Source: a virus (lineage: Duplodnaviria; Caudoviricetes). Taken from it: a DNA stretch of 64,000 nucleotides. The position numbers and the translations under genes are program-made. The notes beneath the pieces were generated by a model. That model did not search any database and was not told the origin of the DNA. It saw only the letters and a list, made by a program, of their open reading frames with translations. This document shows positions 1 through 19,200 of this stretch, piece after piece (the first letter of the stretch is position 1; each line of letters starts with the position of its first letter). Where the stretch lies: positions 1 through 64,000 of IMG/VR virus record IMGVR_UViG_3300028591_000131, one strand, 5' to 3'.

Positions 1-1456
1 TATCTTTATGCTCATTCATTAAATCACGACACAACACTGCAATTTGATCAATTGGTTCTGAATAACACATAATTACATTCTTAACTTGTGTGACAGCATT
101 GGCATTTTTGCACAGTTTACCAAATCCTACATATTGTGTACTTAAATTTTGTAAACCAATCTGATTTGTTCTTAAAATATCTAATGTTTCGTTTATAAAC
201 GAATTAATACCAGCAAGCATAGTTGTACCTTGTAACTGTTCCACTGCCTGATTATATTGTGTGTCCATACGTTTTGTTGTTTCCAAAGCGTTTTCATATT
301 CAGGAGCATATACATTAAGATATTTCGCTAAATTTGCCAACACAACATCTCTTGTACGATTGATTTTTGTTTGTAATAAATCATTTGTTGTAGTAGTATG
401 AGCCAATGTTTCACCATATTGACGAAAATGTTCAAGGGTTTGTTGATTAATGATATTATCGCTTATAGTATTATTTACAATACCAGAAAGCATATTTTTT
501 AAATTGTTAACAGATTGTATTTCTTCGTGTGTAAATGTTGAAAAAACACGCTGTATAAAGTTTAAAACGGCATTTTTAGCACGTTGTAATATTGATTGAT
601 TAATTGTACTTTCAACAATATTGTCGTTAATCATCTGTGCTACTAATCGACCTAATGCTTCACGTTGAATTAAGTGACTCCTGTTAGATTTGGTATAATA
701 ATCTACAACAGAATCATAGTCATCACCAAGAATTTCTCTTACTAAATCGTCATTATTTTGTAGTAATTGTTCTGCACGTTGTATAATTGGATTATCTTTT
801 ATATTCTCAATAACAAAATGCGCAAATTCCTCAGTTAGTGCATTAAAACCAGCAATATTGTTGGCAATATTTATCACTCCTATAAAACCATCAATTGTAT
901 TATTAAGTGCTTCTGGAACCATTAAACCATCTTCACCATGCAATAATCCAGCTTCAAGTATATTAATATTAATACTATGTGCTTGTAATAAAGTGTTAAT
1001 GGTATTATAAATATTCATTGCTTGTTGTAAATGTTCAGATTGTGCATTTGTTTTTTCATTTCGTTCATATACACGAATTGTCGGTTTACCATCTATGTCT
1101 TCAACCAATGCAACAAAATGTGTATTCTTTGCATTATATTTAATAGCTTGATCTATTTTCGATAAAACACTTGTATTTGTATTAGATACCAATTCTTGTT
1201 CAATTTGTTGACGTTGTACATCAGTATTTAGTATATCACCACTATTTAAAAATGACATAACTGAATCTATTGTAGGTTCGTTATTTGAATCAAATACTAA
1301 TTGGTTTTTATATTTGTTTATGAAAGTATTGGATGTTAAAGCACAATAAATTTGTTTTAACACATTATGATCAGTTATCCATGTTCTTAATTTTTGATAT
1401 AAGATACTGGGTTTACCATTATCTGCATCGGGTATTAATTTACAATGTGTACTCAT
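1..1456 (-). CDS. Large virion cargo/ejection protein, N-terminal part (runs off the left edge)
   Basis: Not in the ORF track. ATG at 1456 gives MSTHCKLIPDADNGKPSILY..., with no in-frame stop in the segments I translated. Contains zincin-like EEFAH (818-832) followed by EALGRL. Lies directly after the virion RNAP, where crAss-like phages encode their largest cargo protein. Confidence 0.8.
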   Translation of the reverse strand, partial: MSTHCKLIPDADNGKPSILYQKLRTWITDHNVLKQIYCALTSNTFINKYKNQLVFDSNNEPTIDSVMSFLNSGDILNTDVQRQQIEQELVSNTNTSVLSKIDQAIKYNAKNTHFVALVEDIDGKPTIRVYERNEKTNAQSEHLQQAMNIYNTINTLLQAHSININILEAGLLHGEDGLMVPEALNNTIDGFIGVINIANNIAGFNALTEEFAHFVIENIKDNPIIQRAEQLLQNNDDLVREILGDDYDSVVDYYTKSNRSHLIQREALGRLVAQMINDNIVESTINQSILQRAKNAVLNFIQRVFSTFTHEEIQSVNNLKNMLSGIVNNTISDNIINQQTLEHFRQYGETLAHTTTTNDLLQTKINRTRDVVLANLAKYLNVYAPEYENALETTKRMDTQYNQAVEQLQGTTMLAGINSFINETLDILRTNQIGLQNLSTQYVGFGKLCKNANAVTQVKNVIMCYSEPIDQIAVLCRDLMNEHKD

Positions 1457-1480
1457 ATTCTTTGTTTATATTATTACAAT

Positions 1481-4400
1481 TTAGCAAATTTTTATACTTT
1501 TCTTTTTAGACTCATTTATTAATTTTTCACGTTCTTCATTACTGAAATTTAATCCACTAATGAAAAATTGTGTAGGATCAAATACAACTGTTTCTGAATC
1601 AAGATCTTCAGATAATTCTAATGGTTCATCTTCTACAGCAACTTGCAGATTTTCGGAATACCAATTATGATAACGATCTGAATTTGTTGTTTTACTATAT
1701 ACAGTATTGTCGTATTGTTCCTTAAGAGCAAAAAATTCGTTTGAAACTCTTAATAATTCAGGATGTTCTGCTTTAGCCATATTTGCAAGTTGTATAAAAA
1801 ATTGATTATACGCTGGAATTTGTTGTATTAATCTTACTGGAGCTAATCGAGTTAATGTTGAACTATTAAACGATAAACCACTGTGATAAAGTTCATAAAT
1901 AAATAATTCTGTAAACAAATCACGTATTTTCTGATCTTTATCAGTCAGCAACTGTTCCCATCCTTCAGTAAGATATAATACATCTGTTGCATTCAAACCA
2001 TAAGATGAGATTGATACTGACGATTCATATTCGTTACCACAATTTAATCTTTGTAAAAACGGATTATTACGATATTCTGGTAGCTGTAACAATTCTGTAC
2101 GTTTTCTTGCTATTTGTAACGGAAAGATGCTTTTATAATATTCACGCACGTTGTTATCGTGACTTAACAACACATCACCATCTTCCGTTGGTAAGTTAAA
2201 TAATACATATGTTAACCAATCATTATAGACTAATCGCAATGAATTAGCTGAACGAAGTGTATTGTTTTGTGGTAATTGAGAAAAATAGTGCATTACTGGT
2301 GCTAAAGCAGATGTTAATGCATCCAATAATAATTGTCTGTTATTAAATACAGATGCTAAAAACGCATTATAATTGCTGCTATTTAAATTTTCAGTAGGTT
2401 TTCTTAATACCGTAGCTAAATTTCTGCTAAAATTCAAATTATCAGCTTCTGGATTTTCTAATTTATCCAGTAAATTGGTAATTTGTTTTTGTGATAAAAC
2501 CATTCTGAATAAATCACCGTTTAATTGTAACGAGGAAGCATTGTTTAAATTAACTATTTTACCGATATCAAATGATTTTGAAGAGATGGATAAAAGTTGT
2601 TTTGCAATTAAAAAGATATGATACTGTTGATTTACGAAATCTGCATCTTCTTTTGTAAAATCGTGCAGTGCCATGTTGGTAATCAAATCATCTCTACTTA
2701 TATTATCGCCTTCATAATCAGTTAATTCAACACCAATCTTTGAAAAGAACGACTCCATTGCCTTGAATATTGCTTGATTTGTCAAATTTTCAGTATAATT
2801 GTCAAGTGTATTCATACGTTTAATTATGGGTTGTTGCAAGAATAGTACAACAGTCTCTAAATCAAAACCCAATCTTAACATAGTAATAACCATGTTGATA
2901 GTACCAATACCGATATTTAAATTATAAAAGGTAGGATCTTTTGCAGTATCTGGAGCTGCAGCAAGAAATTCTGAAAGAGTATCAATAACTGTTGTTACAT
3001 CATCAGATGAATATACTTTATCAAGTATCGGTTTGCTTTCAACTTTGACACCATTTAGTTCAAAGGGTTTTACTCCAGAAATACGTGTGTTCCAAAGTCG
3101 ATTCATACTATGTTGTGTAAGAATTGCAGCGATAATACCTAACAATTTTTTACCAGAAAAATTACGATTGTGAATTGTTTCTTGTGTGTGAACATCATTA
3201 ACATCAGTATCTAATTCTACAGCCTTGAATTTAGTTTCCAAGTCATCATCTGAATATTGTTCAACCGTTGTAAAAGCACTTTCAGTAAATACATCCATAT
3301 CATCTAGTGTTTCATCTGGACCAATTTGAGTCATTTGAGAACGTATTTCTTGATCAAACACAACCATTCTTTCCGACCATCGTGTAATATCAACGTAACC
3401 AGATGGAGTCATTTGATGTAATAAAGCAGCTTCGGAAGTTAAAATAGTACGCATTAATTGTAAAATAGAATTATTAGTTCCAGCTAATGAGATTTCATTT
3501 GCCTCTACTGTATGACCATCTTGTTGTAATTCTGGAAAGATAGTAAATAATTTATCAATATCAAAGTCGATACCCATTAATGCTGGAGCTTCAGAAGGTA
3601 ATTTAATAATACCACCCGTAATATTACTGCTGAATCGTACAACTTTCAGTGGCAACATGGAACAATATCCTTCAGTTGGAATACGATAGGCAACTAATTC
3701 TAGTAATTTAGGATCTTCTTTTTCAATACGTTTCATATCTATTTCGCCAGCATGTTCTCCTTCAGCAATAATGTATTTATTAAAAAGTTTTTTTGAAAAT
3801 AACGGTAATTCACATTCGATATATTTAATAGATTTAGGATTACCAAATTTATCAGTATTAAATACTATTTTTAAAGAATCATCTGTTTCAATTGATTTTT
3901 TCGTACGAATATTATCAGTAACTTGAACTAATTGTCCACCAGGCATTCTCAATTCACAAATTGTATTTTTAATAACCGATGTAATAATTTTTTCTACAAA
4001 CCCAGCAATAACTGGATTATTCAAGTTAAGATTAAAATCTCCAGTATTTAAGTTTAATGCAACTGCATTTAACAAATCCAAATTAGCATCGTCGTCGCTT
4101 TTTATTTGATTCGCTAACCAATTACTAAGTTTTTCTTTATATTGAATATTATCTGGATTATCAATATCATTAAAGATTCTTTCAAACTCTTTAATGTCAT
4201 TGATACCAAAATGATTTTTAATTGTACGATTAACTTCTAATTGTACTTTTCTACCAAGTAAGCCAAAGAATTTTACACGTAATTGTTTACCAGTCATTCC
4301 CGTTTCTGGAATCACAGTATTCTCATAGTCAAGTAAACAATTGCAAATCAATTTAATGATTTGGTTACCCACACGTATATTGTGATCCAAATAGTGACTT

Positions 4401-7400
4401 GGAGTTTCTTGCTGTAATTTATTTTCACCAATATCGACAGATGTAATATATTTAGCGTCACCATTCGATTGTGCAAGATGAGCGTTCATATCAGCAATAA
4501 GTTCATTACTGTCTGTGTAGTCACATATTTTTTTATCAGCAATTGTTCCCTTCGCACCCACTTTAACATTTGATGCAAAATAAATAGCATCTATTTTATT
4601 TACTCGCATCCATTTGACAAGTTGTAACATCGTATCGTCTTTAGATTCTAATAAAGCAACTAAATCCAAGCCGGGAAATTGTGCATTTTTAACTTGTATT
4701 GGAGTTAATTCTCCCATACCATCTTGTTCATTTTCCAGATTTAATGTATATAAAAACGGTTTAATCGTTTCCATAACAAAATCTGTATTATTTAATACCT
4801 TACGAGCTTCTTTCAATAACTCTTTGCGTTGTTTTTCTTTTTCAGCTCCAGTTTTAGTAGGATCGTATTTATCAATAATTGCAACCAACTGTTTGTATAA
4901 TGGATAAAAATCAGTATCACGACCTAATGATTCAAGTAAACGTCCAACATAATCAATTGAAATCAAACCCTGTCCATCGGTAGTATCAATGCCGTTATAT
5001 TTAGACAATTTTGTTTCATATGCAGCTTTAAGTTTTTCATCAACTTCTTTTTTCTTCGTTTTATCAGTAATTTTGCTTGTCCTCCAAAGTCTTGCATTGT
5101 GATAAATACGTTCCAATATTGATTTTAAACTTGTTTGCGTAGTTTTAGAACCATCATCTAATTTAACTTGTAAATTATCAGCATCGACTTTGGTATCAGA
5201 AAACATTACGAAACTGATATTCCGATCTTTACGACTTTGATATCGACTTGAGGAAACTGCATTTTGCTTTGTTCCTGGAGAAACAAATTCAGCGTTACGT
5301 TTTTGAGTATCAGTAACAGATGGATAATAAATTAAATCACCTGTCCACATTTGTTGCATTTGAGTATTGGCATAATGATAATTAGCATACCAAGTATTAA
5401 AAAATTCTTTGTTGTTTACATAAGCAGTTAATTGTTGGATAGCTGTAGTATCGTTTACTTCACAATCTTCTAAAAAGGATATAGTGTTTAATAACTGTTG
5501 ACGATATTTATTTGCTTCATTAAGTAAATAGTTATTAATTTTTTTATTAACTGCGTTATAAAACGGTTCAGGATTAGTTAATTCACGATCTTTAATAATA
5601 TCGTAAATACCTTGTGCAATTATATTATGTCTACGTTTTTTAGGATCATTTATTAATCTTAAATCATCATTGAAAATTGGTAAAAATGTAAATCTAAATG
5701 CACCATTCCCAACTGGAATAACATCAGAACTGGTTTTTGTATGCATATTTTTAACAGTTGTTTTGGTACTGTCTTGTTGCATATCATAGACGTGACACAT
5801 GCGCTCCAGTTCTTGATCAAACAATGTTTCATATCGTTTTTGCATATCAACAGGTAAGGTATTACCTGTAATTTGATCTGGATCAGCAACACGAATGCTA
5901 CCATGAGTACTTTTATCAGATGTTGTAGGAACGATATAGTATCCATTTTCAAAACTTACCATAGAATATAATAAATAATATAAAGAATTAAATTCTTTAT
6001 ACGGAATGTCATCGTATGTAGTAGTCGTGGTCAACGTTACATCACGATTCTGATTAAAAATCAAATCTAACCATGATGTATACGAATCTCCTTCATCAGA
6101 TTGTAAAGCGCGCTGGTGAAATATAGATTTTGAAAACGCTTCTTTTAATTTTGCATAAGCTTTACCAGATGGATTCCTTAATGCGTTAACGAATTTTTGC
6201 AAAAAATTTAACGGTGAGAATGTACTATACGATTTATTACCTGCACGTACTGAAGATTTGGTAATCTTTGGTTCACCTTTATGAATTATCGAAAATGCTT
6301 TAATGTATAGTTGACGTATATCTTTTGTCTTTTCAGCAATGCTGCTTGTTGAATTATTTACTGTAGCCAGTAATTTATCGCACAAAGTTGTCAAACTTAA
6401 TTGATTCAAATTATGTGTATGTCTTGCATATATTTTTTGATTACGTGTGTTTTTATTTTGGATATAACGACCTTGTAAATAGTTTCTGATTGTCGACAAG
6501 GACAGATCGTCAAAACCCATTTCCCTAAAAATATCTAGCAGTTTAGAAGCTAAAACAATAGCAGCACGATCAAAATCAATAATTTGTGCAGTCTCGTTAG
6601 CATAAATACCACTTCTGCTTTGTGGTAAATGTTGTAGTGAATTTTTAAATTCATCAATAGCTTCTTTAATATTTTGTTTAATTTGAGATAATTTTGTTTC
6701 GTTAATAAACAGTTGTGATCCAGTTTCTTCGGTAACATAAAACAATGTTCCATTTACATCATTTTGTACAGTATCACTAATTTGTCCATTAAAAGCTGTA
6801 TTTGCAGCGTGGCGAGTTGTTTGTTCTGGTTTGTTTATATCCTTTACTTTCGATTCACCCGTTGTACTATATTGACGATATATATTATATGCTTTTTGTA
6901 TTGACGACACCAATTTGTCTCGTAATTGGTGGTTGTTTTTAAAACGGTTAAGTAATATACTTGAAAATTCTAGTTTTGATGTTTCTAATCTATCTTTTAA
7001 TTCTTCCCAATCATCAACATCGTGAAACAACATCACTAATGTATCTAAGATGTCTTTTGCTCTGAATGTAACACGACGTCCAAAAACATCACGGTTTTTA
7101 CTTGTGATTCCACTTAACCAAAACATTACGTTTTTATCAACCGCCTTGTATAAATTGACTTGTGTTTGTGAAATTTGTAAAAAATCTCTTGCAACTTCAT
7201 TTTCTAAATCTTCAGGGTCAAGTTCACTATTTTCTTGCTCTGTAGTAGTTTCTAAATCTGTTGCGTCGTTGTCGTCTGTAGTTTGATAATCATATTTGAA
7301 TTTAAAATCCAAAGTACGTCTGGTGAAATTATTTAATTTTGAAAACCAAATGGGTGTGAATTTGTCAATTTCTCCAATAACTTCTAATTTACGCGTTTCA

Positions 7401-8878
7401 TCTGATATTAAACTATGTAAAATCTGTTTAACGCGATCAGAGATTAATTTTTGAAAATTATCAGTTCCAATAGTTTTAATGATTTTAACAAACGGATTGA
7501 ATTTATTTTTCTTAGTAATTCGAATTATTTGTTGTATAATTTCATCACTAACAATTGGTTTTGTACCATCATCATATAAAGCAAAGGTTGATTCTGGGTC
7601 TGTTATAACCGAATATAAAAAATTAAATAATGTATCTTCAAAGATTTTTATAATCGATAATTTTTCGCTGAAAGACAGTGTAGAACGATTGTCAAATTCC
7701 TCACGCAATTTTAATTTGTTGTATAAAACAGGATTGCTAGTTTGTAAAGTACCTAATTGAAAACCGTTTGAGTTTTTTCTACGAAACCGATTTAAAATAG
7801 TATTACGGTTATTTGCTGTCTCAACTTCTATACGTTCAATTTCTTCTTCACTTAACGATTGAGCTTGTTTACGTTTTTCACGAATCGTTGCAATATCGTA
7901 TGTTAAATCTTCTAATATTAAATTTGATAAAGATTTAAAATTCGTTGGTTTTTCTTTCTCATTTTTAGAAAATAAAGTTTTAACGTCTTCCCAAAAAGCA
8001 GTACATATATTTTTTAGAGAAGTAAGCATTTTTGATACAATTGTACGTTTGGCATATAATAATATATCAAAATTTTCTCTTGTAGAATATAGTGCAATCA
8101 TTTCACCAAGTATAGTATCCCATTGTGGATCGGTAAGATTTTGTGGATTATAATGAAATGTTGATATTGCAGTCTGAAAAAAGTCATGAATTTGTTTGTC
8201 TTCCAAAGTATATTCGGATGAATCTTTTTTCAATACATTATTAACCAGTTCTTTTAATGAACTTGATATATTTTTCCAACCAACACGTTCGTTGGAATCA
8301 GGTTGTGATTTTAAATTTTGTACCCATAAGTGTGTATATTCATACAGATAGGTTTTCTGACGCCCAGTGTTGATACTTGTATTGATATATACAACCCCAT
8401 TATGTGATATAGAAATAATTTTTTTCTTCTTTTTACGATCAGGCGAAAATGTATAAATAGCATTGCCAGAAGACTGTGTTTCTTTAACTTTTTGTAACAT
8501 TTCTTTATTAGAAAGAAATTGCACATTATCTCCACCACGTAATTTTAATGCTGGAATTATATAGTTGTCAATAAACGAAGCGTTTAAAAACTTTTTTGGT
8601 GTTTTCAACTTATCATCCCCACGTTTGATTTGTAACATACGTGTAGTATATAATTCTTTGCGAAGTTGTTGTTTTTCTTCTTCGGTTGCGGCATTTTTTA
8701 TTTTTTCTTCACCATTAGTATAGTAAACGTTTTCAGTACCGTCAAAATTATACTTTATATGATGACCATCATTTAATGCCCATACGGTATATGCTGTCAC
8801 ACTACCATACATTTGACATAAATCGTCAAATTCATTTTTAACTTTTGGATTACTTAATACAGGACAAAAATTACTCAT
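1481..8878 (-). CDS. Virion-packaged single-chain DNA-dependent RNA polymerase (crAss-like, phi14:2 gp66-type)
   Basis: 2465 aa. Catalytic DFDID at 3554-3568 (MGIDFDIDKLF), preceded by YRIPTEG; also TDGQG and IKPF motifs. Degenerate zincin motif YEYTH near the N-terminus. Located in the cargo cluster. Confidence 0.93.
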   Translation of the reverse strand: MSNFCPVLSNPKVKNEFDDLCQMYGSVTAYTVWALNDGHHIKYNFDGTENVYYTNGEEKIKNAATEEEKQQLRKELYTTRMLQIKRGDDKLKTPKKFLNASFIDNYIIPALKLRGGDNVQFLSNKEMLQKVKETQSSGNAIYTFSPDRKKKKKIISISHNGVVYINTSINTGRQKTYLYEYTHLWVQNLKSQPDSNERVGWKNISSSLKELVNNVLKKDSSEYTLEDKQIHDFFQTAISTFHYNPQNLTDPQWDTILGEMIALYSTRENFDILLYAKRTIVSKMLTSLKNICTAFWEDVKTLFSKNEKEKPTNFKSLSNLILEDLTYDIATIREKRKQAQSLSEEEIERIEVETANNRNTILNRFRRKNSNGFQLGTLQTSNPVLYNKLKLREEFDNRSTLSFSEKLSIIKIFEDTLFNFLYSVITDPESTFALYDDGTKPIVSDEIIQQIIRITKKNKFNPFVKIIKTIGTDNFQKLISDRVKQILHSLISDETRKLEVIGEIDKFTPIWFSKLNNFTRRTLDFKFKYDYQTTDDNDATDLETTTEQENSELDPEDLENEVARDFLQISQTQVNLYKAVDKNVMFWLSGITSKNRDVFGRRVTFRAKDILDTLVMLFHDVDDWEELKDRLETSKLEFSSILLNRFKNNHQLRDKLVSSIQKAYNIYRQYSTTGESKVKDINKPEQTTRHAANTAFNGQISDTVQNDVNGTLFYVTEETGSQLFINETKLSQIKQNIKEAIDEFKNSLQHLPQSRSGIYANETAQIIDFDRAAIVLASKLLDIFREMGFDDLSLSTIRNYLQGRYIQNKNTRNQKIYARHTHNLNQLSLTTLCDKLLATVNNSTSSIAEKTKDIRQLYIKAFSIIHKGEPKITKSSVRAGNKSYSTFSPLNFLQKFVNALRNPSGKAYAKLKEAFSKSIFHQRALQSDEGDSYTSWLDLIFNQNRDVTLTTTTTYDDIPYKEFNSLYYLLYSMVSFENGYYIVPTTSDKSTHGSIRVADPDQITGNTLPVDMQKRYETLFDQELERMCHVYDMQQDSTKTTVKNMHTKTSSDVIPVGNGAFRFTFLPIFNDDLRLINDPKKRRHNIIAQGIYDIIKDRELTNPEPFYNAVNKKINNYLLNEANKYRQQLLNTISFLEDCEVNDTTAIQQLTAYVNNKEFFNTWYANYHYANTQMQQMWTGDLIYYPSVTDTQKRNAEFVSPGTKQNAVSSSRYQSRKDRNISFVMFSDTKVDADNLQVKLDDGSKTTQTSLKSILERIYHNARLWRTSKITDKTKKKEVDEKLKAAYETKLSKYNGIDTTDGQGLISIDYVGRLLESLGRDTDFYPLYKQLVAIIDKYDPTKTGAEKEKQRKELLKEARKVLNNTDFVMETIKPFLYTLNLENEQDGMGELTPIQVKNAQFPGLDLVALLESKDDTMLQLVKWMRVNKIDAIYFASNVKVGAKGTIADKKICDYTDSNELIADMNAHLAQSNGDAKYITSVDIGENKLQQETPSHYLDHNIRVGNQIIKLICNCLLDYENTVIPETGMTGKQLRVKFFGLLGRKVQLEVNRTIKNHFGINDIKEFERIFNDIDNPDNIQYKEKLSNWLANQIKSDDDANLDLLNAVALNLNTGDFNLNLNNPVIAGFVEKIITSVIKNTICELRMPGGQLVQVTDNIRTKKSIETDDSLKIVFNTDKFGNPKSIKYIECELPLFSKKLFNKYIIAEGEHAGEIDMKRIEKEDPKLLELVAYRIPTEGYCSMLPLKVVRFSSNITGGIIKLPSEAPALMGIDFDIDKLFTIFPELQQDGHTVEANEISLAGTNNSILQLMRTILTSEAALLHQMTPSGYVDITRWSERMVVFDQEIRSQMTQIGPDETLDDMDVFTESAFTTVEQYSDDDLETKFKAVELDTDVNDVHTQETIHNRNFSGKKLLGIIAAILTQHSMNRLWNTRISGVKPFELNGVKVESKPILDKVYSSDDVTTVIDTLSEFLAAAPDTAKDPTFYNLNIGIGTINMVITMLRLGFDLETVVLFLQQPIIKRMNTLDNYTENLTNQAIFKAMESFFSKIGVELTDYEGDNISRDDLITNMALHDFTKEDADFVNQQYHIFLIAKQLLSISSKSFDIGKIVNLNNASSLQLNGDLFRMVLSQKQITNLLDKLENPEADNLNFSRNLATVLRKPTENLNSSNYNAFLASVFNNRQLLLDALTSALAPVMHYFSQLPQNNTLRSANSLRLVYNDWLTYVLFNLPTEDGDVLLSHDNNVREYYKSIFPLQIARKRTELLQLPEYRNNPFLQRLNCGNEYESSVSISSYGLNATDVLYLTEGWEQLLTDKDQKIRDLFTELFIYELYHSGLSFNSSTLTRLAPVRLIQQIPAYNQFFIQLANMAKAEHPELLRVSNEFFALKEQYDNTVYSKTTNSDRYHNWYSENLQVAVEDEPLELSEDLDSETVVFDPTQFFISGLNFSNEEREKLINESKKKSIKIC

Positions 8879-8909
8879 ATGTTTTTTTGTTTTATAATCA
8901 TTACTTTAA

Positions 8910-11900
8910 TTAACAACCAGTTGTGGAATCTTCTTTTGAAGCTTCTTTAATAGCTTGTTTTAACTTATCACTACATTGACTTAAAAAATCCTGGTTCAAT
9001 TCAATACAAGCGGTTTTAAAGTCTATATTGTTCATTTCATTATCTATTTGTTCAATTTCTTCTTTAAATGTATTAAATACAGCATCTAAAGAAGTATAAT
9101 TTTCTTGTGTTTGTGCTGCAACCAAATCAGATTCTACCGCTTGTTCGTTTTGCTCATTATCAGTTTGTTTTGTTTCTTCAATCGGAGCTTCCGTTGTAGC
9201 TTGTGGAGTTTCAGTTTGTACTTGTTGTTTTTGTGTTGCACGTCTACGAAAGACTCCTCGTGTTGTTTGTTTCTCACGTTTTTCACCCAAAACAAACGTG
9301 TAATTCACATTGAATGGTACCAATTCTTGATATAAACCCAATAAACCATCTTTTACCAATCGACGTATATCCAAACGTTCTTTAGCAAATTCCAAAGCAA
9401 ATTTGATATTTTCATCTGCTGCAGTCATTGTATCCATAATAGAAATTTTGGTAATAGACGGCACAACATGCAAATCATTTACCAAATAATCTGTAAATTG
9501 ATCAACACTTTCAAATGGAATATTATAAGTATAACCGTCAACTGGATATTGTAAACCATCAATTCCTTTTGTAGTAATTCGTATTTTCCAATCTGGTGAA
9601 AGATTTTTCTTTCCTGCATTTACATTGACAATTTGTAATGTGCAAGTATCTTTTTCAGCTTGGTTGTCTACTTCCCAATAAACCTTTTTATTGCCACCCA
9701 AATCTTCAGTAGTATTTACACGTTTCTTTTTTGGTAATTGAAACGCGATGGAATTTCTCAAAATAGCATTTAATCCAGCAAAATTTTTAATTTCTGGATT
9801 ATTATACATTTTGGAAATTAAATTTACAACGTCTGTAAGTACACCGTCGTCTTTTTTAAATGGTCTTAAATCACATTTAATATAAGAAAAATCTGATAAC
9901 TCGATAGATTGTGCATTTGATGGTATTTTACCTTCTCTGTGTGTAAATACATATACAACACCAGCAGCAATATCTTGTTTATTATTTAATATCATTTGTG
10001 ATAAGGCAGGTTTACTTAAGTTAACATATTTATCACCATCATAAATATAAACGTTATTTTCTGTACGAAAACAAATAAAATAACTTTGGTTATTATCAAA
10101 TTGATTTTGAATATCATTCATATCAACACCGTCATCGAAAACAGTACGATTGTTGTCGGTTACTTTGTGTACAGCTCCACGCATAGGTGCAGCTTCAAAC
10201 ACACCTTTTAGTTTAAAGAAGTTACCATCCATCCCGGAATTACTGATATCTTCATATTGTTGTGTACCAGGTAAAACATAACCACATAATGTGGGTTCAC
10301 TTGTGTCTGTTAATTTACTATAAACACCAATTACTGTTTCTGTATAATCAGCTGTAACTTGTAATTCAATTGGAGCAAATTGTAATTCCGCACCCGTTTT
10401 TAATAAACGATAATTATATAAATTATAAATACCATCATCCTTACAAAGTTTGTGTATGTGATTTAACAAAGCTACACGTTTTCTTTTTTCTGGATCAACA
10501 CTACGCAAGCCGTTTAAAAGTTTTTGTAGAAAATTCTGAGTTTTGGGTACAGATTTACTGTTTGTGTTGCTATTATTAAACAAATCGTATTCTGTAATTG
10601 GAATAGCTGCTTTACCACTATTTACAGTGTCATCTAATGTTTTAGCCAATTCGCCTTCCTCTTCATCTGTCAAAGCATCAGTTATAGGAACATTTATGTC
10701 AGATTGATCTTGAATTACATTTTCATCTGTATTGTTATTTTGTTCTGTTTGTTCTTGTTGAACTTCTGGCTGTTGTTCCGTTTGTATTGCAAGATCTTCG
10801 TTATCTATCGGATTAATCACTGGATTTTCAGATGGATTGGTTTCTGGTTCTGTTGCGGCTTCTTCACTAATCACTGGGTTTTCCACATTGTCGGGTGTTT
10901 CTGGTACTATAGGATTTTCAGAAGATTGTAAATTTTTAACTGGTGTTTCTGTTTCTTGCTGTGATTCTGTTGTGGTAGATTTATTTGAACGTGTTGTAAA
11001 TCCAGATTCGAATTCGTTAATTGCTTGCATTAATTGATTAAATACATCAATTCGTTTTTGAAACAGTTCGTGTTCACTTTCTCTATCGGGATTATCAATT
11101 ACATTTTGCCAAATTTGAATTACTTTTGGTCTAAAATATTGTACAAAAAGTTTACCTTCAACATCTTCTGTTTCAAATTGGTGTTTAATGGTGTTGATAA
11201 TATGATTAGTTTCTTCTGTCGACGCTCCCTGTTCTAATAAAACATTTCGTATTTGTGCAATTAATGGATCTTTAAATAAGATATATTGTACACCTGGCAT
11301 TTCAACACGAGATTCATAAATACCTAATTGTATAACTTTTGGATTGTCAGTGTTTGTAAAAATATCATCACTGACTGGAATATAAACTTCATGTTGTTTA
11401 CTATCCATAATTCTAATAAACGAAGTATGTGCAATAAAATCTACTCCAATGTGAACTTCGACGTCATCACCAAATTTTGTGACAGTTTCATAACCAAAAT
11501 CTGTCATTTGCAAATCATTCTTTGTCATACCACTAGTTGGCTGTTCTGCCATTAATTTAGTAAAATTTTTAACAGCCTCAACTAAATTATTATATACTTC
11601 CGTCGTAACAATAGTGGGTTTGTGAAATACAGGAATAACGGCTTGTTCAAGATTGTGTGCAAAACGTTTTATAGTTTGATACATTTCGCTTTGTGGATCA
11701 TAACTCGATAAAATATCCTGAAAAGTGGCTTGTATTTCTTGAATTGCCGCATCTATATCATCTTTTGATTGTACTGTGTTTAAAATAGATAACAATTGAT
11801 TCTTTAAAGTAGTTTCAATTGTATTATCATTTTTAATATCTTTCTCCAGTTTATCTAAAGCATCGATATATGCGTCAGTTTGTATTTGTTCATATTGTTC

Positions 11901-14573
11901 TGGTGTTGGAACTGATGTATTGTTTTCACTTTGTTGCTGTTGTGGTTGATTAACATTATTAACCATTTTTTGTACAGCAGCTTCGATTTTATCTAACAAT
12001 TGTGGATTTTGAATATAAAAAGAAAAATCATCCATTAACTTCATTACATCAAACGCATTCTGAATTGTATCGATAGCTTTTTCAGCAAAGTCTTTTGTTT
12101 TTTCAACATCTGTTAATTTAAAACGACCTTTCACTGCAATATCGTCAATAAAATTTTTTGTGATTTGTTGACGTTGTTCCTTAGATATTATTCCGTTTTG
12201 ACGTTTGTCGTTAATTTTTTCTAGTAACTTATCATAATCAATAAAAGCCATTAACTGTTCTGCTTGCTGTATTTCATTTACTGCCTGATGTTGTGGACGA
12301 TCATTATTATCTAACATTTTCATTAATTCAGAATACATCTGATCAACACGTTCACTTTTGTTTCTAGCAAATAACAACATACTTGTCAATAAATCTATTG
12401 ACTTTTGACTTGTACGGTTACCGGCCAAACTCGTTACTTCACGACGAACGTTGTCATAATCCTTGAATGCTTTTTGAATCGCTTCTTTAACTTTTGGGGC
12501 ACGTTGTTGAAATTCTTTAAATGTCATATCTTCTTCAACTCGGCCGCTTTCTTTTAATTGAGTAAATTGATCCTCGTCAATATTTAAATCCAATGTATCA
12601 ATTATTTCTTGATAGTCTTTTAAAATACCAAGATTATTAAACGCTTCAGCTAAACTAATTAACTCTAAAAAATCATTATCTTTATATGACATACGATCTC
12701 CATTTAAAACAGCTTTCTGTTTTAAATTATCATACGCCAGCAGCTTTAATACGTTTTGATATTTAGCTCGATATTCAGGATCTGTATAATATTGGTTAAC
12801 AGTTTCAATACTTTGTTCAAGTAATTTTTGCCTGTCTTGTGCTTCTTTCCAATCAGCAATACCACCAGCCCATTCGATAGTAAATGGTATATTTTGTTTA
12901 ATCATTTGCCACTTGCTTAAACGGTTACCATCTTTATCGGTAGTTTTAATAACATTTCTACGACGTCTGATTGTAGGCATACCTAAACCCATAATACCAC
13001 CAGCAAAACCTTCAACCCAATCGTCTGGATTACCATAGCTTTGTTTCCAAGCATAATTAAATCCTTTCATTTTTGTTTGAAGTTGATCGTTGTATTCACT
13101 ATTTAGTGTGGCATTGTAGGTTTGTGAAAGAACAGCATTTAACTCAGAGCCTTTCATATATTCATTATAAGCGTTTATGAAACTTTGACCCATTTCTTCA
13201 ACAACACCTTCACCAATCATCGCTTTACCAATGTTATAAGTTCTGCTGTTTTGAAACTTACTCCAATTACTTTGTGTCACTTTTTGAATGGTTTTGTCAA
13301 CAGCACTGTGTTGTATATTGACTTTTGGAAATAACTTTTCAATAAAATTGTTATTAAACTTCTTACCAATAGTTGAAAATCCATTTGAAAAAAACTTACG
13401 AAAAACCAAAAAGTTTTCAATGGACAACAACGGTACTTCCGCTGCAAAAACACCTTGACCAGCTGCTAACGCACTATCATATATTTGATCAATAGCCTCA
13501 TTATATACTATAGTATAATAATCGTCATATGACATAGGAGTCCCATCTGCATTTTTAGGTTTGTTTTTTTGATACATTCTTTGAATGTAATCAGGATTTT
13601 CTTCTAAAAATTCATCAAAAAGTTGTGTATTTTTTTCAACAAAATCATACATTTGCCTAGCTCCTTCGTATTGAGCTTCACCAATAGCACCCAATGTTGA
13701 ACCAACAATTTCATCTGCTAAATTTCTACGAGTTTGACGCGCTACCAGCGTTTTGATAGCTTCTTCTTTTTGACTGACAGATAAAGCATTATTTGCAATA
13801 ATACCTTTCATTTCATCACGGATAGCTTTTTGTCCAATAGATTCATATAGTTTAAATGTAGATTTTTTTCCTGCAGCACCCACTAGTTGTGTTACCCCAC
13901 GTACTCCTTTTGTGGCTAATTTAGCAGCAGCCATTGAACCGTATGAAAAACCAAAATTTTTAAGTATATCGTCAAACCAAAAATTTGCAGCACCACCACT
14001 GAAAGGAAGAGCATTTTTTAACCAAAAACGATCTTGTTCAAGATATGATCTATAGTTTGGAAATGTTTGTTCCATCAGCTCTTCTAATTCAATCATATCT
14101 TTGGTTACTTGACTATTTACTATTGCTTTACCCCATCTTTGAAAAAAATTACCATCATAATTTTCTGTATTAAAAGCAACCGTTGGTATTTGAAATATAG
14201 CACTGGCTAAATTGATTGCTGTACTCACAGTTAATCCACCAGCTTTAATTAAGTCATTACCTAACTTACCATACCACGATTGTTCCGAAGCACGTAAATC
14301 AGTAGGATCGGCAGCTTGACTTCCAAGTGTAGCATTTTTATCAAATTTAGAACTACCGAAGTCTGGTGCAACATGATTACTATCAACCCATTTATAACCA
14401 TAATTACCGTATAATTTGTCATATAGTTTACGATCACGACGCCATAAAGTACTTGAATCGATTACACTTTGAGCTTGTTCTAATCCAGCATAATATTGTG
14501 CTAATCTTTCTTCGTCCGACATATTACCCATCATACCACGGGCACGCTCTGTTTGTTCTAATTGTGTTGGCAT
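8910..14573 (-). CDS. Large cargo/ejection protein, probable membrane-channel component
   Basis: 1887 aa. Hydrophobic Gly/Ala segments (GFSYGSMAAA, IVGSTLGAIGEA, EGVVEEMGQ, GFAGGIMGLG), coiled-coil middle, acidic linker, C-terminal Cys. Immediately upstream of vRNAP. Confidence 0.75.
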   Translation of the reverse strand: MPTQLEQTERARGMMGNMSDEERLAQYYAGLEQAQSVIDSSTLWRRDRKLYDKLYGNYGYKWVDSNHVAPDFGSSKFDKNATLGSQAADPTDLRASEQSWYGKLGNDLIKAGGLTVSTAINLASAIFQIPTVAFNTENYDGNFFQRWGKAIVNSQVTKDMIELEELMEQTFPNYRSYLEQDRFWLKNALPFSGGAANFWFDDILKNFGFSYGSMAAAKLATKGVRGVTQLVGAAGKKSTFKLYESIGQKAIRDEMKGIIANNALSVSQKEEAIKTLVARQTRRNLADEIVGSTLGAIGEAQYEGARQMYDFVEKNTQLFDEFLEENPDYIQRMYQKNKPKNADGTPMSYDDYYTIVYNEAIDQIYDSALAAGQGVFAAEVPLLSIENFLVFRKFFSNGFSTIGKKFNNNFIEKLFPKVNIQHSAVDKTIQKVTQSNWSKFQNSRTYNIGKAMIGEGVVEEMGQSFINAYNEYMKGSELNAVLSQTYNATLNSEYNDQLQTKMKGFNYAWKQSYGNPDDWVEGFAGGIMGLGMPTIRRRRNVIKTTDKDGNRLSKWQMIKQNIPFTIEWAGGIADWKEAQDRQKLLEQSIETVNQYYTDPEYRAKYQNVLKLLAYDNLKQKAVLNGDRMSYKDNDFLELISLAEAFNNLGILKDYQEIIDTLDLNIDEDQFTQLKESGRVEEDMTFKEFQQRAPKVKEAIQKAFKDYDNVRREVTSLAGNRTSQKSIDLLTSMLLFARNKSERVDQMYSELMKMLDNNDRPQHQAVNEIQQAEQLMAFIDYDKLLEKINDKRQNGIISKEQRQQITKNFIDDIAVKGRFKLTDVEKTKDFAEKAIDTIQNAFDVMKLMDDFSFYIQNPQLLDKIEAAVQKMVNNVNQPQQQQSENNTSVPTPEQYEQIQTDAYIDALDKLEKDIKNDNTIETTLKNQLLSILNTVQSKDDIDAAIQEIQATFQDILSSYDPQSEMYQTIKRFAHNLEQAVIPVFHKPTIVTTEVYNNLVEAVKNFTKLMAEQPTSGMTKNDLQMTDFGYETVTKFGDDVEVHIGVDFIAHTSFIRIMDSKQHEVYIPVSDDIFTNTDNPKVIQLGIYESRVEMPGVQYILFKDPLIAQIRNVLLEQGASTEETNHIINTIKHQFETEDVEGKLFVQYFRPKVIQIWQNVIDNPDRESEHELFQKRIDVFNQLMQAINEFESGFTTRSNKSTTTESQQETETPVKNLQSSENPIVPETPDNVENPVISEEAATEPETNPSENPVINPIDNEDLAIQTEQQPEVQQEQTEQNNNTDENVIQDQSDINVPITDALTDEEEGELAKTLDDTVNSGKAAIPITEYDLFNNSNTNSKSVPKTQNFLQKLLNGLRSVDPEKRKRVALLNHIHKLCKDDGIYNLYNYRLLKTGAELQFAPIELQVTADYTETVIGVYSKLTDTSEPTLCGYVLPGTQQYEDISNSGMDGNFFKLKGVFEAAPMRGAVHKVTDNNRTVFDDGVDMNDIQNQFDNNQSYFICFRTENNVYIYDGDKYVNLSKPALSQMILNNKQDIAAGVVYVFTHREGKIPSNAQSIELSDFSYIKCDLRPFKKDDGVLTDVVNLISKMYNNPEIKNFAGLNAILRNSIAFQLPKKKRVNTTEDLGGNKKVYWEVDNQAEKDTCTLQIVNVNAGKKNLSPDWKIRITTKGIDGLQYPVDGYTYNIPFESVDQFTDYLVNDLHVVPSITKISIMDTMTAADENIKFALEFAKERLDIRRLVKDGLLGLYQELVPFNVNYTFVLGEKREKQTTRGVFRRRATQKQQVQTETPQATTEAPIEETKQTDNEQNEQAVESDLVAAQTQENYTSLDAVFNTFKEEIEQIDNEMNNIDFKTACIELNQDFLSQCSDKLKQAIKEASKEDSTTGC

Positions 14574-14577
14574 ATAT

Positions 14578-15999
14578 TTACTTTTTTATTGTTATTGGTG
14601 CGATTGTACCACTAAGTGCAACTTTAATATTTTGTAATTCAGATTGTGTCATTTGTGTAAATTTCTCTCTTTGTGTAGTATTCATTGTAGTAGGTGCTGT
14701 AACTGCTTGACGAGCTTCTATTGAATTACGATATGCATCAAAATGATCTTTTGGTAACATTAAATGTTCTGGTTCTAAATAATATATTGTTGGTTTACTA
14801 CCATCTTTATTGGAAGCCTCTAACTTAATATATAATTTTCGATTTTCTGGATCTAATCCGTTTGGATAGCCAATTGAAATAGCAATGTTTTTATCTTTAA
14901 GTTCAATATTTTTAGCAAATTTGCCGTTTTCAGTTAATATATTATTGTATTGTCCACTTGCACTAATAATACCTGTAATAATTTGACCCCAATTATTACC
15001 ATCTTTGCCAGATAAAACAAGTACAGGCTCGTGGTTTGTAAATGCTGTGCCAATACCAAATGGTGTTGTAATTTGACGATCATATAATTGAATTGGATTT
15101 TCTGCTTCTTGTTGCATAGCTTTGGCTATTAATTCAGCATCAGCTCTATCTGCAGCTCTTTGTGCTAATTTCAAATGTTCGGATTGGTAATAATTGCTTT
15201 GGATATCTTTCAAATCGTTGTCTTTAATGTCTGCTTCTTGCTTACCGAGTAAGTTCATCATACCCTCAGACGCATAGAATAACATTCTATTAAAATCATC
15301 AAGATTATTCATTAAATTTTGACCATTTTGATCAATTACTCCATGTTTTTGTAGTATTTGGCTCACAATACTGTTTTCATATGTACCTGGTTGTTTAGCT
15401 TGTTCAAACTCCGGTAAAGTATAACCATATTGAGTTCTTACTAAGTCTTTATATTGTGACCACTTTTCTTTGGTCATATCCACACGATGCGCAGCTGCTA
15501 ATAATTTAGATACTTCAGCAACATCCTTTTTAATAGATTCTCCGCTTACCAATTCCATTTGTGGAATACCATTAATGTATTCGTTAATTGGTCTTGTTAA
15601 CGAACCCTTTAATGCAACTTCTGGATGACTTGTTAAAAAGTTTGACATTTCAGATACGTGTTTTATGCGATTATTTACTGCTAATTGTAATGGTTTGATA
15701 GTTTGCGCATAAGTAACATTTAAATTTCTTAAATTATTATATGTGTTTGCAGTCAAACCATTTGTTGACAGATCGTTTACTGCATTTTCAAGTAAGGATC
15801 TATTTTGTTGATATGTTTGATAAGCTTCTTTATCCAATTCGGGATCTAAATATTTTTCCAAAGCTGCATTTTGCATTTCTAACTCATTCAACCCTTGTGC
15901 CTGTTGTGCCAATATAGCAGTAGCTCTTTGAACTGGAGCAGCTAATTCTTGGTAACTATATGGATTAAATTTTGCTGTATTTATAAATCTTCTAGCCAT
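14578..15999 (-). CDS. Cargo/ejection protein
   Basis: 473 aa helical protein with N-terminal FNPYSYQELAAP motif, between cargo protein 1 and the large cargo genes. Confidence 0.65.
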   Translation of the reverse strand: MARRFINTAKFNPYSYQELAAPVQRATAILAQQAQGLNELEMQNAALEKYLDPELDKEAYQTYQQNRSLLENAVNDLSTNGLTANTYNNLRNLNVTYAQTIKPLQLAVNNRIKHVSEMSNFLTSHPEVALKGSLTRPINEYINGIPQMELVSGESIKKDVAEVSKLLAAAHRVDMTKEKWSQYKDLVRTQYGYTLPEFEQAKQPGTYENSIVSQILQKHGVIDQNGQNLMNNLDDFNRMLFYASEGMMNLLGKQEADIKDNDLKDIQSNYYQSEHLKLAQRAADRADAELIAKAMQQEAENPIQLYDRQITTPFGIGTAFTNHEPVLVLSGKDGNNWGQIITGIISASGQYNNILTENGKFAKNIELKDKNIAISIGYPNGLDPENRKLYIKLEASNKDGSKPTIYYLEPEHLMLPKDHFDAYRNSIEARQAVTAPTTMNTTQREKFTQMTQSELQNIKVALSGTIAPITIKK

Positions 16000-16023: not shown

Positions 16024-19000
16024 TTATCCCCTTTCTGCGGGTTCAAATTGTTTTGTTGTAGGATTCCAAAAGTATGGAATTCTACCTTGATAATTAAAAT
16101 CTGCATCATATGCATTAGTAGGATCTTTTGCAATTCTCCATCTGTCGTATAACTCACGTCCCAAGTTTCCAAGATTCATTGCAAGATTTTGCATATTAGT
16201 TTCACGTGCATTTTCAACAGCTAATCTTTCCTGTTCTGCAGCAGCATACGAGTTACCCATTATATTTGCGTAATTTGAATAATTAGCAGCTTGTGTTGCT
16301 CTACGAGCTTCTTCATTCGCACGATCTAATTGATTATTGTATTGTAATGCCGCATTGCGGTTTTGATTGTTTGTTTGTAACGCTCTTATATAAGCATCAT
16401 TAACAGCAGCACTTTGATTTGCAGCAGCAAGAGTAGCATATGCGTTTGCTGCAGATGATGACTGTACATTATTTTTATAGAAACCGTATTGTGTATTTGC
16501 ACGTTGATTCGCTTGTGTATCCAAATAATGTTGGTCTACAGGTTGAAAACGTTGGTATTGACCAATTGGATAGCTGCTAACCGGACGATAAGTTGATGCT
16601 ATCTGATTTGCATACGTATAATCTGGATTATCTTGTGTTAATATAGAACGTAAATTATCAAATATAGGGGACATACGTAAAGCAGAAAAGTACCAAGGAT
16701 GTTTTTCAACAGATCCCTGAAATTCTGAATTTGGATTTGGATTTGTTTCTACGTTATTACTTTGATTTGTATTTATATCAGGAGCGATAACATCTTCGTT
16801 TAATACTTCGTCTAAAATACTTTCTGGGGTTGAATTATTTACCAAATCAGCGTTATCTGTTGTTGGATTATATGCAATAATTTCACGATGAATGGGTCCA
16901 AAATTGCCATCTACAGCTTTATCTTTATAATATTGCAAATCATCGTGTTTACCATAAAAACTTGGATTACGTTCTTGTAATCTATTTTTAATTTGTTCCC
17001 AATCGTCATCGGTTAAATTATCAACTTTTGATTTATAATTCGGATTATTATCGTAATTTATATTTCCATTTAAGCCTTTTCTATTTGTAATTGTATATAC
17101 ATTAGGATATTTAGATGGATCTGCATTATATTCTGTACTAGGAATGTATCGTTGAGAATCTGCATTATAATATGAAATCCCACTTAAACTATTAGAAGGT
17201 TGGGATATAACACTTGTTGTTCCATACGAAGTAGGGTTTGTTTGTGAAACCGGGTATGTTTGTGTTGAAGTATTTATATTTTTTTGAGTTGCTGTTTGTA
17301 ATGGATCTATCATTACATTTGATGTCATAACCATTGTTGGTTTATAAGGGGTTACTAAAGTAAGATCTTTCGTTTGCCCAAAAACGTCTTTTGCTAATTT
17401 ATAACGATCAGATCTAGCACTATTTAAAGCCGGTAATGCTGATTTAATTGTTTCTTCGTTTACTAACATTCTATAGATATTGTTACCATGAAAAGCACCA
17501 CGACCGTAAAAATGACCTTTATCGAAAAACGCTTTTTTGAACTGATCCGCTGTTTTAGTGCCATTCACTCTATCATATGCTTCACAAAAAGAAGCATATT
17601 TTGACAAAACTTTAGCAGAATCGTTTATTCTTTTTGTTACTGTATCATATCTATCTTGTTCGTTTTTAGATAGTCTTCCTTCTTCGTTATATTCCCATGT
17701 ATAGTTATATAAACCATAATATGATTCTATAAACTTTAAAACCGCATCCCAAACTTCTGATGGAATTTGTTTACGATATTTATCACTAGTTTTATTTTCA
17801 GTTCCACGATATACATCTGTAGTTAACGGTTTTACTAAGTTTCCCTGTGAATCATAAGCAGAAGCAGCATTTTTTCTGGCTTGAAACGCATTATTAAACC
17901 AACTTTTACCTAAAGGACCTCCGGAGGCATATTCATTTTGAGATTGTATTAATTGTTGTTGTGCTACTACATATTCTTCTGGAGTTAATCCATACTGTGC
18001 AGCTTCATCAGATAATTTTTGATATTCTTGCGCATCAGCTAATCGTTGCATTTGTACATTTAATGTACTTTTATCAAAAGGATTATTCTCACGTTCTTTG
18101 TGTAAATCCAATATAAAATTAGCAGCATCTGCATAAGAATTAAATTTTTTATTGAACAACGTATTGTATTTCGACAAAATATCTGCATTTGGTTGAATAC
18201 GATTTGAAAAAATAAAATCGTTCCATTTTACTTCGCCTTCTTCAACCAAATTGGTATTTCCATTGTCTCCAACACCTTGTGGAATACCACCGTTTTGATT
18301 CATTTCATGTGTGCCACCGGTATTAAATGTTGTTACACCCATTTGCTCTTCAGAACCAAGTGGTCCACCGGCAGCATTATAATTACCAATTAATCTTTGT
18401 TTATACATTGAATGATTCTTATTGTCAATAATATTATTAAGTCCAGTATTATAAGCATTATTAAACGCAATGTTTTCAAGTCGATTAAATCTGGATATAG
18501 CATTTAAATCTTTATTATAAGTTGATCTTTTAGCCGCAATATTTCCTATTGATGCGAGACCACCTCCAATAGCACCTCCCAAAATACCCCATGGACCGAG
18601 ACTTGAACCAGCAATAGCACCCTCTGTAGATTTTTTAAAGAAGTCTCCAAAGAAAGTTTTTGCTGTTGGTTTTTGTAATAACGTATCTTTATTCAAATAC
18701 GTTTTGTGCATATTACCAAGATCTGACAGGTCGTTAATACTATCAGCGTGATAATTTGTATATTTGGGAATTGTTATTGTAGATTTTGTACTATTTACAA
18801 TATCTGCAATATGTCCAGCAGCTGTAGTTGCTAAATCACCAATACCTTTCCAATTAAGTTTAGAATTTGATTGTTGATCTGATGCAGAATATTCAGGAGG
18901 TTCACTTGCTGGATTATACAGATTTTCATCTATCATTTGATCTGCATCTGTAAAATCAATTTGAAATTGATTTGGTTGAGTATCAATTTTTATACGTTCT

Positions 19001-19167: not shown

Positions 19168-19200
19168 ATTATATTGTTTTAACGTTAAAATCATTTAATT

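Follow-up and report, generated by a model that had tools for sequence, protein, structure and literature searches.

How do crassviruses, which are reported as the most abundant human gut viruses, deliver an RNA-polymerase cargo of ~700 kDa past tail constrictions of less than 50 Å? This is an open question in both the 2023 atlas of phage crAss001 (PMC10172136) and the 2026 paper on phage N4 (PMC13434306). The locus described here belongs to an uncultured phage known from metagenomic data (IMG/VR virus record IMGVR_UViG_3300028591_000131, 103,184 bp), of which bases 1-64000 form the stretch analysed (the window). Three consecutive giant genes of this window, designated A, B and C, encode putative cargo proteins, B being a predicted virion RNA polymerase (vRNAP), and they carry cysteine (Cys) residues at certain of their extreme ends. 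The initial annotation had proposed from these residues that disulfides could chain the cargo head to tail in gene order, for packaging, ordered ejection and release in a reducing compartment. Based on the sequence patterns reported below and on the analogy with cyanophage A4, we consider it probable that A, B and C are joined head-to-tail by a covalent chain in the virion.

Terminal cysteines in this phage and across lineages

The four Cys codons from which the proposal started all lie on the minus strand at the positions reported for them (Table 1). Direct reading gives A a start without Cys (MPTQLEQ...) and the end ...EDSTTGC, and B the start MSNFC and the end ...KSIKIC, while C starts with MSTHC. 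The reading frame of C leaves the record at base 1 and its remainder is located at the opposite record end (100189-103184); once the two ends are joined, the frame stays open and specifies a protein of 1483 amino acids (aa) that ends in ...EKLEEDNEE without a C-terminal Cys, the C proteins of relatives being 1430-1435 aa long. Because the joined ends restore this frame, the nominally 'linear' record, which is cut within gene C, behaves as a complete, circularly permuted genome. The local pattern, with the N-terminus named first, is A (none, Cys), B (Cys, Cys) and C (Cys, none). Also borne out were the statements that A has no N-terminal Cys, that the 473-aa protein encoded ahead of it has no C-terminal Cys (it contains no Cys at all) and that Cys is rare in these proteins, with a content of 0.42% in A and 0.57% in B versus 1.41% genome-wide. 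As a background, Cys is found at positions 2-8 in 7 of 100 open reading frames (ORFs) of this genome and within the final 10 residues in 14 of 100, the latter being mostly Cys-rich replication proteins.

The same terminal-Cys rule is followed by the homologous trios of two named phages, crAss001 (gp47, gp50 and gp49) and phi14:2 (g067, g066 and g065), with B of this phage only ~25% identical to its counterparts there. For crAss001, gp47 (2341 aa) has a single Cys at 2339, gp50 (2412 aa) has Cys 5, 1334 and 2404, and gp49 (1349 aa) has a single Cys at 5. The phi14:2 trio holds 4 Cys per 5398 residues, every one of them at the predicted termini: the last residue of g067 (1797 aa), positions 3 and 2179 of g066 (2180 aa) and position 3 of g065 (1421 aa), the Cys of g067 and g065 being the only ones in these proteins. 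The crAss001 gene for gp47 is located on the strand opposite gp50-gp49, and the Cys rule therefore tracks protein identity and not gene adjacency. It follows that the reference to gene order in the initial annotation is not general, as A lies on the opposite strand to B-C in crAss001-like genomes. The crAss001 proteins gp47, gp49 and gp50 were detected in virions, assigned to the capsid cargo zone and argued to need partial unfolding for their exit (PMC10172136).

Database homologues extend the rule further. In nearly all of 67 homologues of B, one Cys occupies a position from 3 to 6 and another lies among the last 1-9 residues, and this persists at 23% identity in proteins with only 3-4 Cys per ~2620 residues; those few that lack an N-terminal Cys begin 12-25 residues downstream of the rest, an indication of mis-called start codons. 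Homologues of A carry a Cys in the last 6 residues in 12 of 12 cases and an N-terminal Cys in none of the 12, and those of C carry a Cys at positions 2-7 in 21 of 21 cases and a C-terminal Cys in none of the 21. The full Cys pattern in the same gene order was found in three relatives whose B proteins share 49%, 49% and 30% identity with B of this phage.

A profile search of IMG/VR gave 80 loci (numbered with the prefix L), which were reduced to 46 clusters at <60% identity of the B core, and the following counts refer to the cluster representatives. Among stand-alone B proteins, 33/37 carry a Cys at the N-terminus and 37/38 at the C-terminus; the corresponding figures are 41/41 and 0/40 for C, and 0/8 and 27/27 for A. 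The five apparent exceptions are all explained: L086 has an ATG upstream and its second Met yields MKIYC, L020, L022 and L029 are A-B fusions, and a frameshift of 1-2 nt relative to the near-identical L071 splits B in L072. Tabulated in this manner, the termini of orthologues display strong paired conservation across the 46 lineages. The flanking sequence is far more variable, as the sole invariant columns are M1 and C5 in an alignment of 39 C N-termini (20% mean identity) and the terminal Cys in an alignment of 24 A C-termini (15% mean identity), while Cys5 of B is at least 90% conserved in an alignment of 11 sequences with a mean column identity of 24%. Across lineages, Cys accounts for 0.13% of the residues of A proteins, and the median A protein contains a single one.

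A chance origin of the terminal-Cys pattern is excluded. Under a null model in which Cys are placed uniformly within each protein, log10 P summed over the 145 terminal Cys of the 46 lineages is -268, a value that treats the lineages as independent and by that overstates the significance. Control ORFs of at least 300 aa from the same loci, other than A, B and C, have an N-terminal Cys in only 2 of 43 cases. A C-terminal Cys was found in 15 of 64 such controls; six of these are A proteins missed by the hidden Markov model (HMM), a seventh corresponds to the latter half of the frameshifted L072 B, and most of the others are Cys-rich proteins, such as DNA polymerases ending in ..CW(I/V/R)H and the crAss001 ribonucleotide reductase. 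It could be argued that the N-terminal calls are determined by the choice of start codon, but the C-termini of A and B, which are unambiguous, follow the rule as counted above, and a pattern produced by chance or annotation artefact is thereby already refuted and retains a negligible probability.

Some loci differ in the size or surroundings of these genes. The crAss001-like loci L038, L039, L043 and L045 encode a gp50 of 2608 aa versus 2412, with an insertion of ~196 residues that leaves the termini and the three Cys unchanged. At L015:8283-9320 (+), a 345-aa ORF (MSC...DRVC) follows a B that ends in ...LLKCK, and it may be an additional short chain link. The B proteins of L075, L077 and L082 (~3800-3960 aa) contain helicase-type inserts and run from MGCVNKSS... 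to ...FHKYC; no recognisable C gene is located within 2 kb after B in these loci, where a 796-aa minus-strand ORF is found instead, and C may be located elsewhere in these genomes of 115-128 kb.

Gene fusions, shifted breaks and the pairing of ends

The unfused Cys counts (one in A, two in B and one in C) allow several pairings, and crAss001 virions are rich in structural disulfides (PMC10172136), so the terminal Cys could alternatively bond other virion parts, such as the portal, the inner capsid surface or cargo proteins 1 and 2, or form another topology with a circularised B plus an A-C bond, or homodimers. Relatives in which two or all three genes are fused bear directly on this. Fusions were mapped with the B and C HMMs plus an A HMM trained solely on stand-alone proteins; an iterated A HMM that had absorbed A-B fusions gave suspect matches and was discarded and rebuilt from stand-alone proteins.

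A-B fusions are present in L008, L010, L017, L020, L022, L029, L031 and L083, with the C-terminal domain of A, to position ~2061 of 2063 of the HMM, just upstream of the B region. Both the N-terminal and the junction Cys are absent from these proteins, the C-terminal Cys is retained, and the downstream C retains its N-terminal Cys; the fusion proteins of L010 (4461 aa) and L031 (4476 aa) have a single Cys each, which is the last residue. The B-C fusions of L019 (3382 aa, its only Cys being at position 3) and L066 (3903 aa) retain the N-terminal Cys and lack the junction and C-terminal Cys, and the preceding A retains its tail Cys. An A-B-C fusion at L081:391-11997 (+) occupies a single reading frame of 3868 or more residues that extends past the contig start, has no in-frame stop in the standard code and contains zero Cys.

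Reassignment of TGA and of TAG is known for some crAss-like phages, with which the recoding in L019 and L066 is consistent: the L019 B-C gene contains 21 in-frame TGA codons and its A gene 16, and the L066 B-C gene contains 71 in-frame TAG codons and its A gene 44. The possibility that the B-C fusions are artefacts of stop recoding was rejected, as the TGA codons of L019 and the TAG codons of L066 are distributed throughout the gene. The late genes of these two loci, and also those of L050 and L064, stay open only with stop-codon recoding.

In the tree of the B core, all A-B fusions group together in one clade (support 0.999), and B-C fusion has at least three origins (L066, L019 and L081). 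Inside the A-B clade (support 0.997-1.0), L048, L052 and L053 again encode two proteins, with the break displaced. Their A' proteins end near position 1300-1330 of the A HMM with ...KEKC or ...KKCK, and their B' proteins start with MAC... and have an N-terminus that corresponds to positions ~1450-2020 of the A HMM (E 4e-12 and 2e-12, with BLAST in agreement). A Cys pair is thus found at the displaced break, and it therefore tracks the break in the chain and not a homologous position.

These fusions and fissions provide a Rosetta-stone argument: they follow the pattern expected if the A tail bonds the B head and the B tail bonds the C head, and they speak against other pairings or an anchor on a third protein. 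Fusion of A with B removes exactly the A-tail and B-head Cys, fusion of B with C exactly the B-tail and C-head Cys, and the triple fusion has none, whereas a third-protein anchor would still be needed after fusion; moreover, the Cys pair follows the displaced break, and in this phage cargo 2 has zero Cys and cargo 1 only an internal one. We therefore regard other partners or another topology as improbable, and the comparison of sequences strongly supports selected, pairwise head-to-tail links that join A to B and B to C.

One gene of the A-B clade is interrupted in a close relative. The continuous A-B fusion gene of L010 (2921-16306) is broken by ~400 nt in L009 (9751-10148), and past this gap a 673-aa ORF has the same C-terminal ...PFEEC. 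An intron, a mobile insert or faulty assembly could each account for the interruption.

The proposed disulfide chain and its precedents

With the ends paired in this way, the C-terminal Cys of A would bond Cys5 of B, and the C-terminal Cys of B would bond Cys5 of C, giving a single unbranched thread of ~5800 residues that runs A-B-C from N to C. That the link is a disulfide is inferred by parsimony, from the A4 structure described below and from other inter-subunit disulfides in crAss001 virions, which have been reported for gp57, the tail hubs and the ring proteins (PMC10172136). Because both partner Cys lie at the extreme termini, the thread would have the topology of one linear polypeptide, a pseudo-polyprotein of which some relatives encode the actual fusion. 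Such a topology would suit a narrow channel, and it would explain both the interchange of peptide bond and Cys pair and the purge of other Cys. The thread would maintain a 1:1:1 stoichiometry, partly unfolded cargo would traverse the narrow tail in a fixed order, and host cytoplasmic reductants would afterwards separate the three proteins; these roles in packaging, ordered ejection and reductive release are inference only.

The anatomy of the ends can be described across lineages. The Cys of A tails is located at -1 to -8 and that of B tails mostly at -1 (C-terminal range overall -1 to -9), and the Cys of B heads is at positions 3-7 and that of C heads mostly at 5 (N-terminal range overall 3-8, mode 5). 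Related lineages share the helix-like A-tail motif (W)..(S/T)xEE(R/K)xxAxxC, B tails have a G..(I/L)C motif and many C heads read CxIIPxV(K/R)N. An AlphaFold2 model of the last 250 aa of A, of low confidence over most of its length, places a helix at model residues 232-248, two residues ahead of the terminal Cys250. Between the body of A and this terminal module (Table 1) lies a linker at which the consensus of the A-homologue alignment is of low complexity; according to the model the linker is probably disordered and would resemble a flexible leash for the linking end. The AlphaFold2 model of the C N-terminus, with a mean predicted local distance difference test (pLDDT) score of 83.7, shows residues 1-9 as a coil before a folded domain, so Cys5 of C is predicted to sit in a free, accessible N-terminal tail. 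A Foldseek search of this model against PDB gave no match at E<0.001, and none to the A4 pre-ejectosome chains.

Such flanking motifs (the EE(R/K)xxAxxC helix, G..(I/L)C and CxIIPxV(K/R)N) would also fit a reading in which the Cys mark non-covalent docking or processing motifs, for packaging or protease recognition, at the ends of an ancestral polyprotein, with no covalent link among the proteins. A preprint on the phi14:2 vRNAP, which noted that the trio is fused in some phages, suggested that the fused forms are 'likely cleaved' (Drobysheva et al., bioRxiv 10.1101/2020.03.07.982082). However, the flanks differ widely among lineages and the Cys alone is invariant, and Cys is otherwise purged from these proteins, as counted above for A, which is expected if stray thiols mis-pair but not for a docking motif. 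This explanation is accordingly given a low probability.

A shared metal has to be weighed as well, either as an inter-protein Zn or Fe bridge or as a cysteine switch that keeps a zincin-like protease in C latent until ejection. The same preprint reported a zincin-like metalloprotease domain in phi14:2 gp65 (bioRxiv 10.1101/2020.03.07.982082), an HExxH motif is present in phi14:2 g065 and a HEFGH zincin motif in the C part of L081, and a His stands beside the Cys at some termini (MHC..., MSTHC, ...IHCGKNI). Nevertheless, each terminus has one Cys and the neighbouring His is not conserved, C of this phage has no HExxH, and a single protease site cannot explain four termini. The pairwise loss of Cys at fused junctions suits a bond between two partners, and the sole solved instance of the signature, that of A4, is a disulfide. 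Metal binding by the terminal Cys thus appears unlikely, and we retain the disulfide chain as the preferred reading.

The closest precedent for this chain is found in the pre-ejectosome of cyanopodophage A4 (Anabaena phage A-4L), for which cryo-electron microscopy revealed that gp27 inserts its C-terminal helix into gp26, where a disulfide between gp27 Cys1715 and gp26 Cys5 locks it (PNAS 2025, PMC12002296). According to the A-4L record, gp27 (1717 aa) and gp26 (1114 aa, MSKHC...) have only those Cys, one each. Both systems consist of consecutive giant ejection proteins in which the upstream Cys lies near the C-terminus after a helix and the downstream Cys is Cys5, and the MSKHC of A4 gp26 resembles the MSTHC and MSNFC of this phage; the A4 bond was seen in the virion, whereas the crAss bond is predicted from genes. 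A4, a member of the Saffermanviridae, has one link, no RNA polymerase and an ordered pentameric ring above the portal, whereas the crAss chain would have two links with the vRNAP in the centre, would be order-wide and is tracked by gene fusion and fission. The resemblance to A4 is one of mechanism and not of family membership, and the crAss chain would be a multi-link, order-wide version of a device seen once, in A4. Together with the orthologue termini and the fusions and fissions, this precedent supports the pairing of ends proposed in the initial annotation, the part that concerned gene order having been set aside above.

A different comparison is offered by N4 (Schitoviridae), whose vRNAP gp50 is a single chain of ~3500 residues ejected via the tail (PMC13434306). 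It is composed of N-terminal, catalytic and C-terminal parts arranged as beads on a string, which must unfold through the tail, and how the crassvirus trio relates to these parts was posed as an open question in 2026 (PMC13434306). Unlike the crAss trio, the N4 enzyme is one polypeptide of a different polymerase fold family with no disulfide stitching. No description of a terminal-Cys chain for Crassvirales was found in the searchable full-text literature, and terminal cysteines or a covalent link among A, B and C are mentioned neither in the crAss001 paper (PMC10172136) nor in the phi14:2 preprint.

Several points weigh against the proposed chain. The S-S bond in crassvirus virions is so far a prediction, and mass spectrometry of crAss001 virions, with reduced and non-reduced samples, reported no cargo cross-link (PMC10172136). 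Given a reducing host cytoplasm and an anoxic gut, it is uncertain when the bond would form, and disulfides of purified virions could arise during aerobic handling. If the fused forms are cleaved as Drobysheva et al. proposed, covalent continuity may not matter. The A4 precedent is an analogy, as none of the three family HMMs matched A-4L gp25-gp29 in an hmmsearch with E up to 10. Finally, the counts of N-terminal Cys depend on first-ATG calls, and the lineages are only partly independent, with the A-B fusions forming a single clade.

A covalent thread, if true, would explain the 1:1:1 stoichiometry of the trio and its fixed exit order, as well as the near absence of Cys and the free interchange of fused and split genes. 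Terminal Cys would then provide a simple sequence rule for locating the ends and partners of ejected cargo in uncultured phages. Whether this applies to Crassvirales generally seems to us evenly balanced: the injected transcription machinery would be a disulfide-stitched pseudo-polyprotein of 5,000-6,000 residues that threads through the tail in N-to-C direction and a set order before host reductants take it apart, a terminal Cys pair and a peptide bond would be interchangeable with breaks freely moved, removed or created, and A4 would be a convergent case of a general solution of podophages with giant ejected proteins.

Gene identity and neighbouring genes

The assignment of A, B and C rests on profile comparisons. 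B matches the crAss001 'putative RNA polymerase' (tblastn, 2e-33) and many other crassviruses with ~25% identity, and the B family HMM matches phi14:2 g066, a structurally characterised vRNAP, at 4e-80; residues D1771, F1772, D1773 and D1775 of B are invariant in the 11-sequence B alignment. The C family HMM scores 1535 bits with C of this phage and matches phi14:2 g065 at 1e-92. The A family HMM, seeded from this clade with stand-alone proteins only, recruits crAss001 gp47 with 1144 bits and gave no match to phi14:2 g067 at E<1e-3. Judged by these relationships, the trio represents the RNA polymerase-associated cargo of a crAss-like phage. Proteins of the A/B/C families have been detected in virions by mass spectrometry in crAss001 (PMC10172136) and phi14:2 (bioRxiv 10.1101/2020.03.07.982082) only, and the giant proteins of this phage are most likely packed and injected.

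Megablast of the region against phage records gave zero matches, PHROGs and Pfam contain no family for A, B or C, and in sequence searches of PDB neither B nor the profiles of A and C had any match. A single B sequence used as a query for related loci recovered no relatives, whereas the alignment profile succeeded.

Table 1. Features of the cargo locus within the window (coordinates refer to the window; RNAP, RNA polymerase).
Feature	Coordinates	Strand	Family or basis
Gene A, 1887 aa, RNAP-associated cargo	8910..14573	-	crAss001 gp47 family; ORF listing and direct reading
Cys1887 of A (TGT, final codon ahead of stop)	8913..8915	-	
C-terminal helical module of A, ~residues 1830-1885 (predicted)	8919..9086	-	AlphaFold2, pLDDT 64-90 over last ~60 residues
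E/P/T-rich linker of A, ~100 residues, between body and terminal module	9099..9389	-	pLDDT <50, model residues 92-188
Gene B, 2465 aa, virion RNA polymerase	1481..8878	-	crAss001 gp50 / phi14:2 gp66 family
Cys5 of B (MSNFC)	8864..8866	-	
DFDID catalytic motif of two-barrel RNAP, B residues 1771-1775	3554..3568	-	
Cys2465 of B (TGC, final codon ahead of stop)	1484..1486	-	
Gene C, N-terminal 485 of 1483 aa	1..1456	-	crAss001 gp49 / phi14:2 gp65 family
Cys5 of C (MSTHC)	1442..1444	-	
Cargo protein 2, 473 aa, zero Cys, outside the proposed chain	14578..15999	-	Pfam PF25712 crAss_CARGO2, 7e-22
Cargo protein 1, 1056 aa, one internal Cys, outside the proposed chain	16024..19194	-	Pfam PF25725 crAss_CARG1, 2.5e-33

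The surroundings of the trio are those of a crAss-type phage. Matches to crAss-type PHROGs were obtained for the portal, the large terminase and the major head protein, and the crAss_CARG1 and crAss_CARGO2 genes directly upstream of A indicate a crAss-type structural module.

A further protein of the window starts with MSNGC and has its Cys at position 5. It is a 589-aa, tail-fibre-like protein with collagen repeats (41888-43657, minus strand; Pfam Collagen and tail-fibre PHROGs). The N-terminal 26 residues of the crAss001 fibre protein gp22 dock into disulfide-stabilised tail hubs, and for this reason, by analogy, Cys5 of the fibre-like protein may represent a docking disulfide of another kind.

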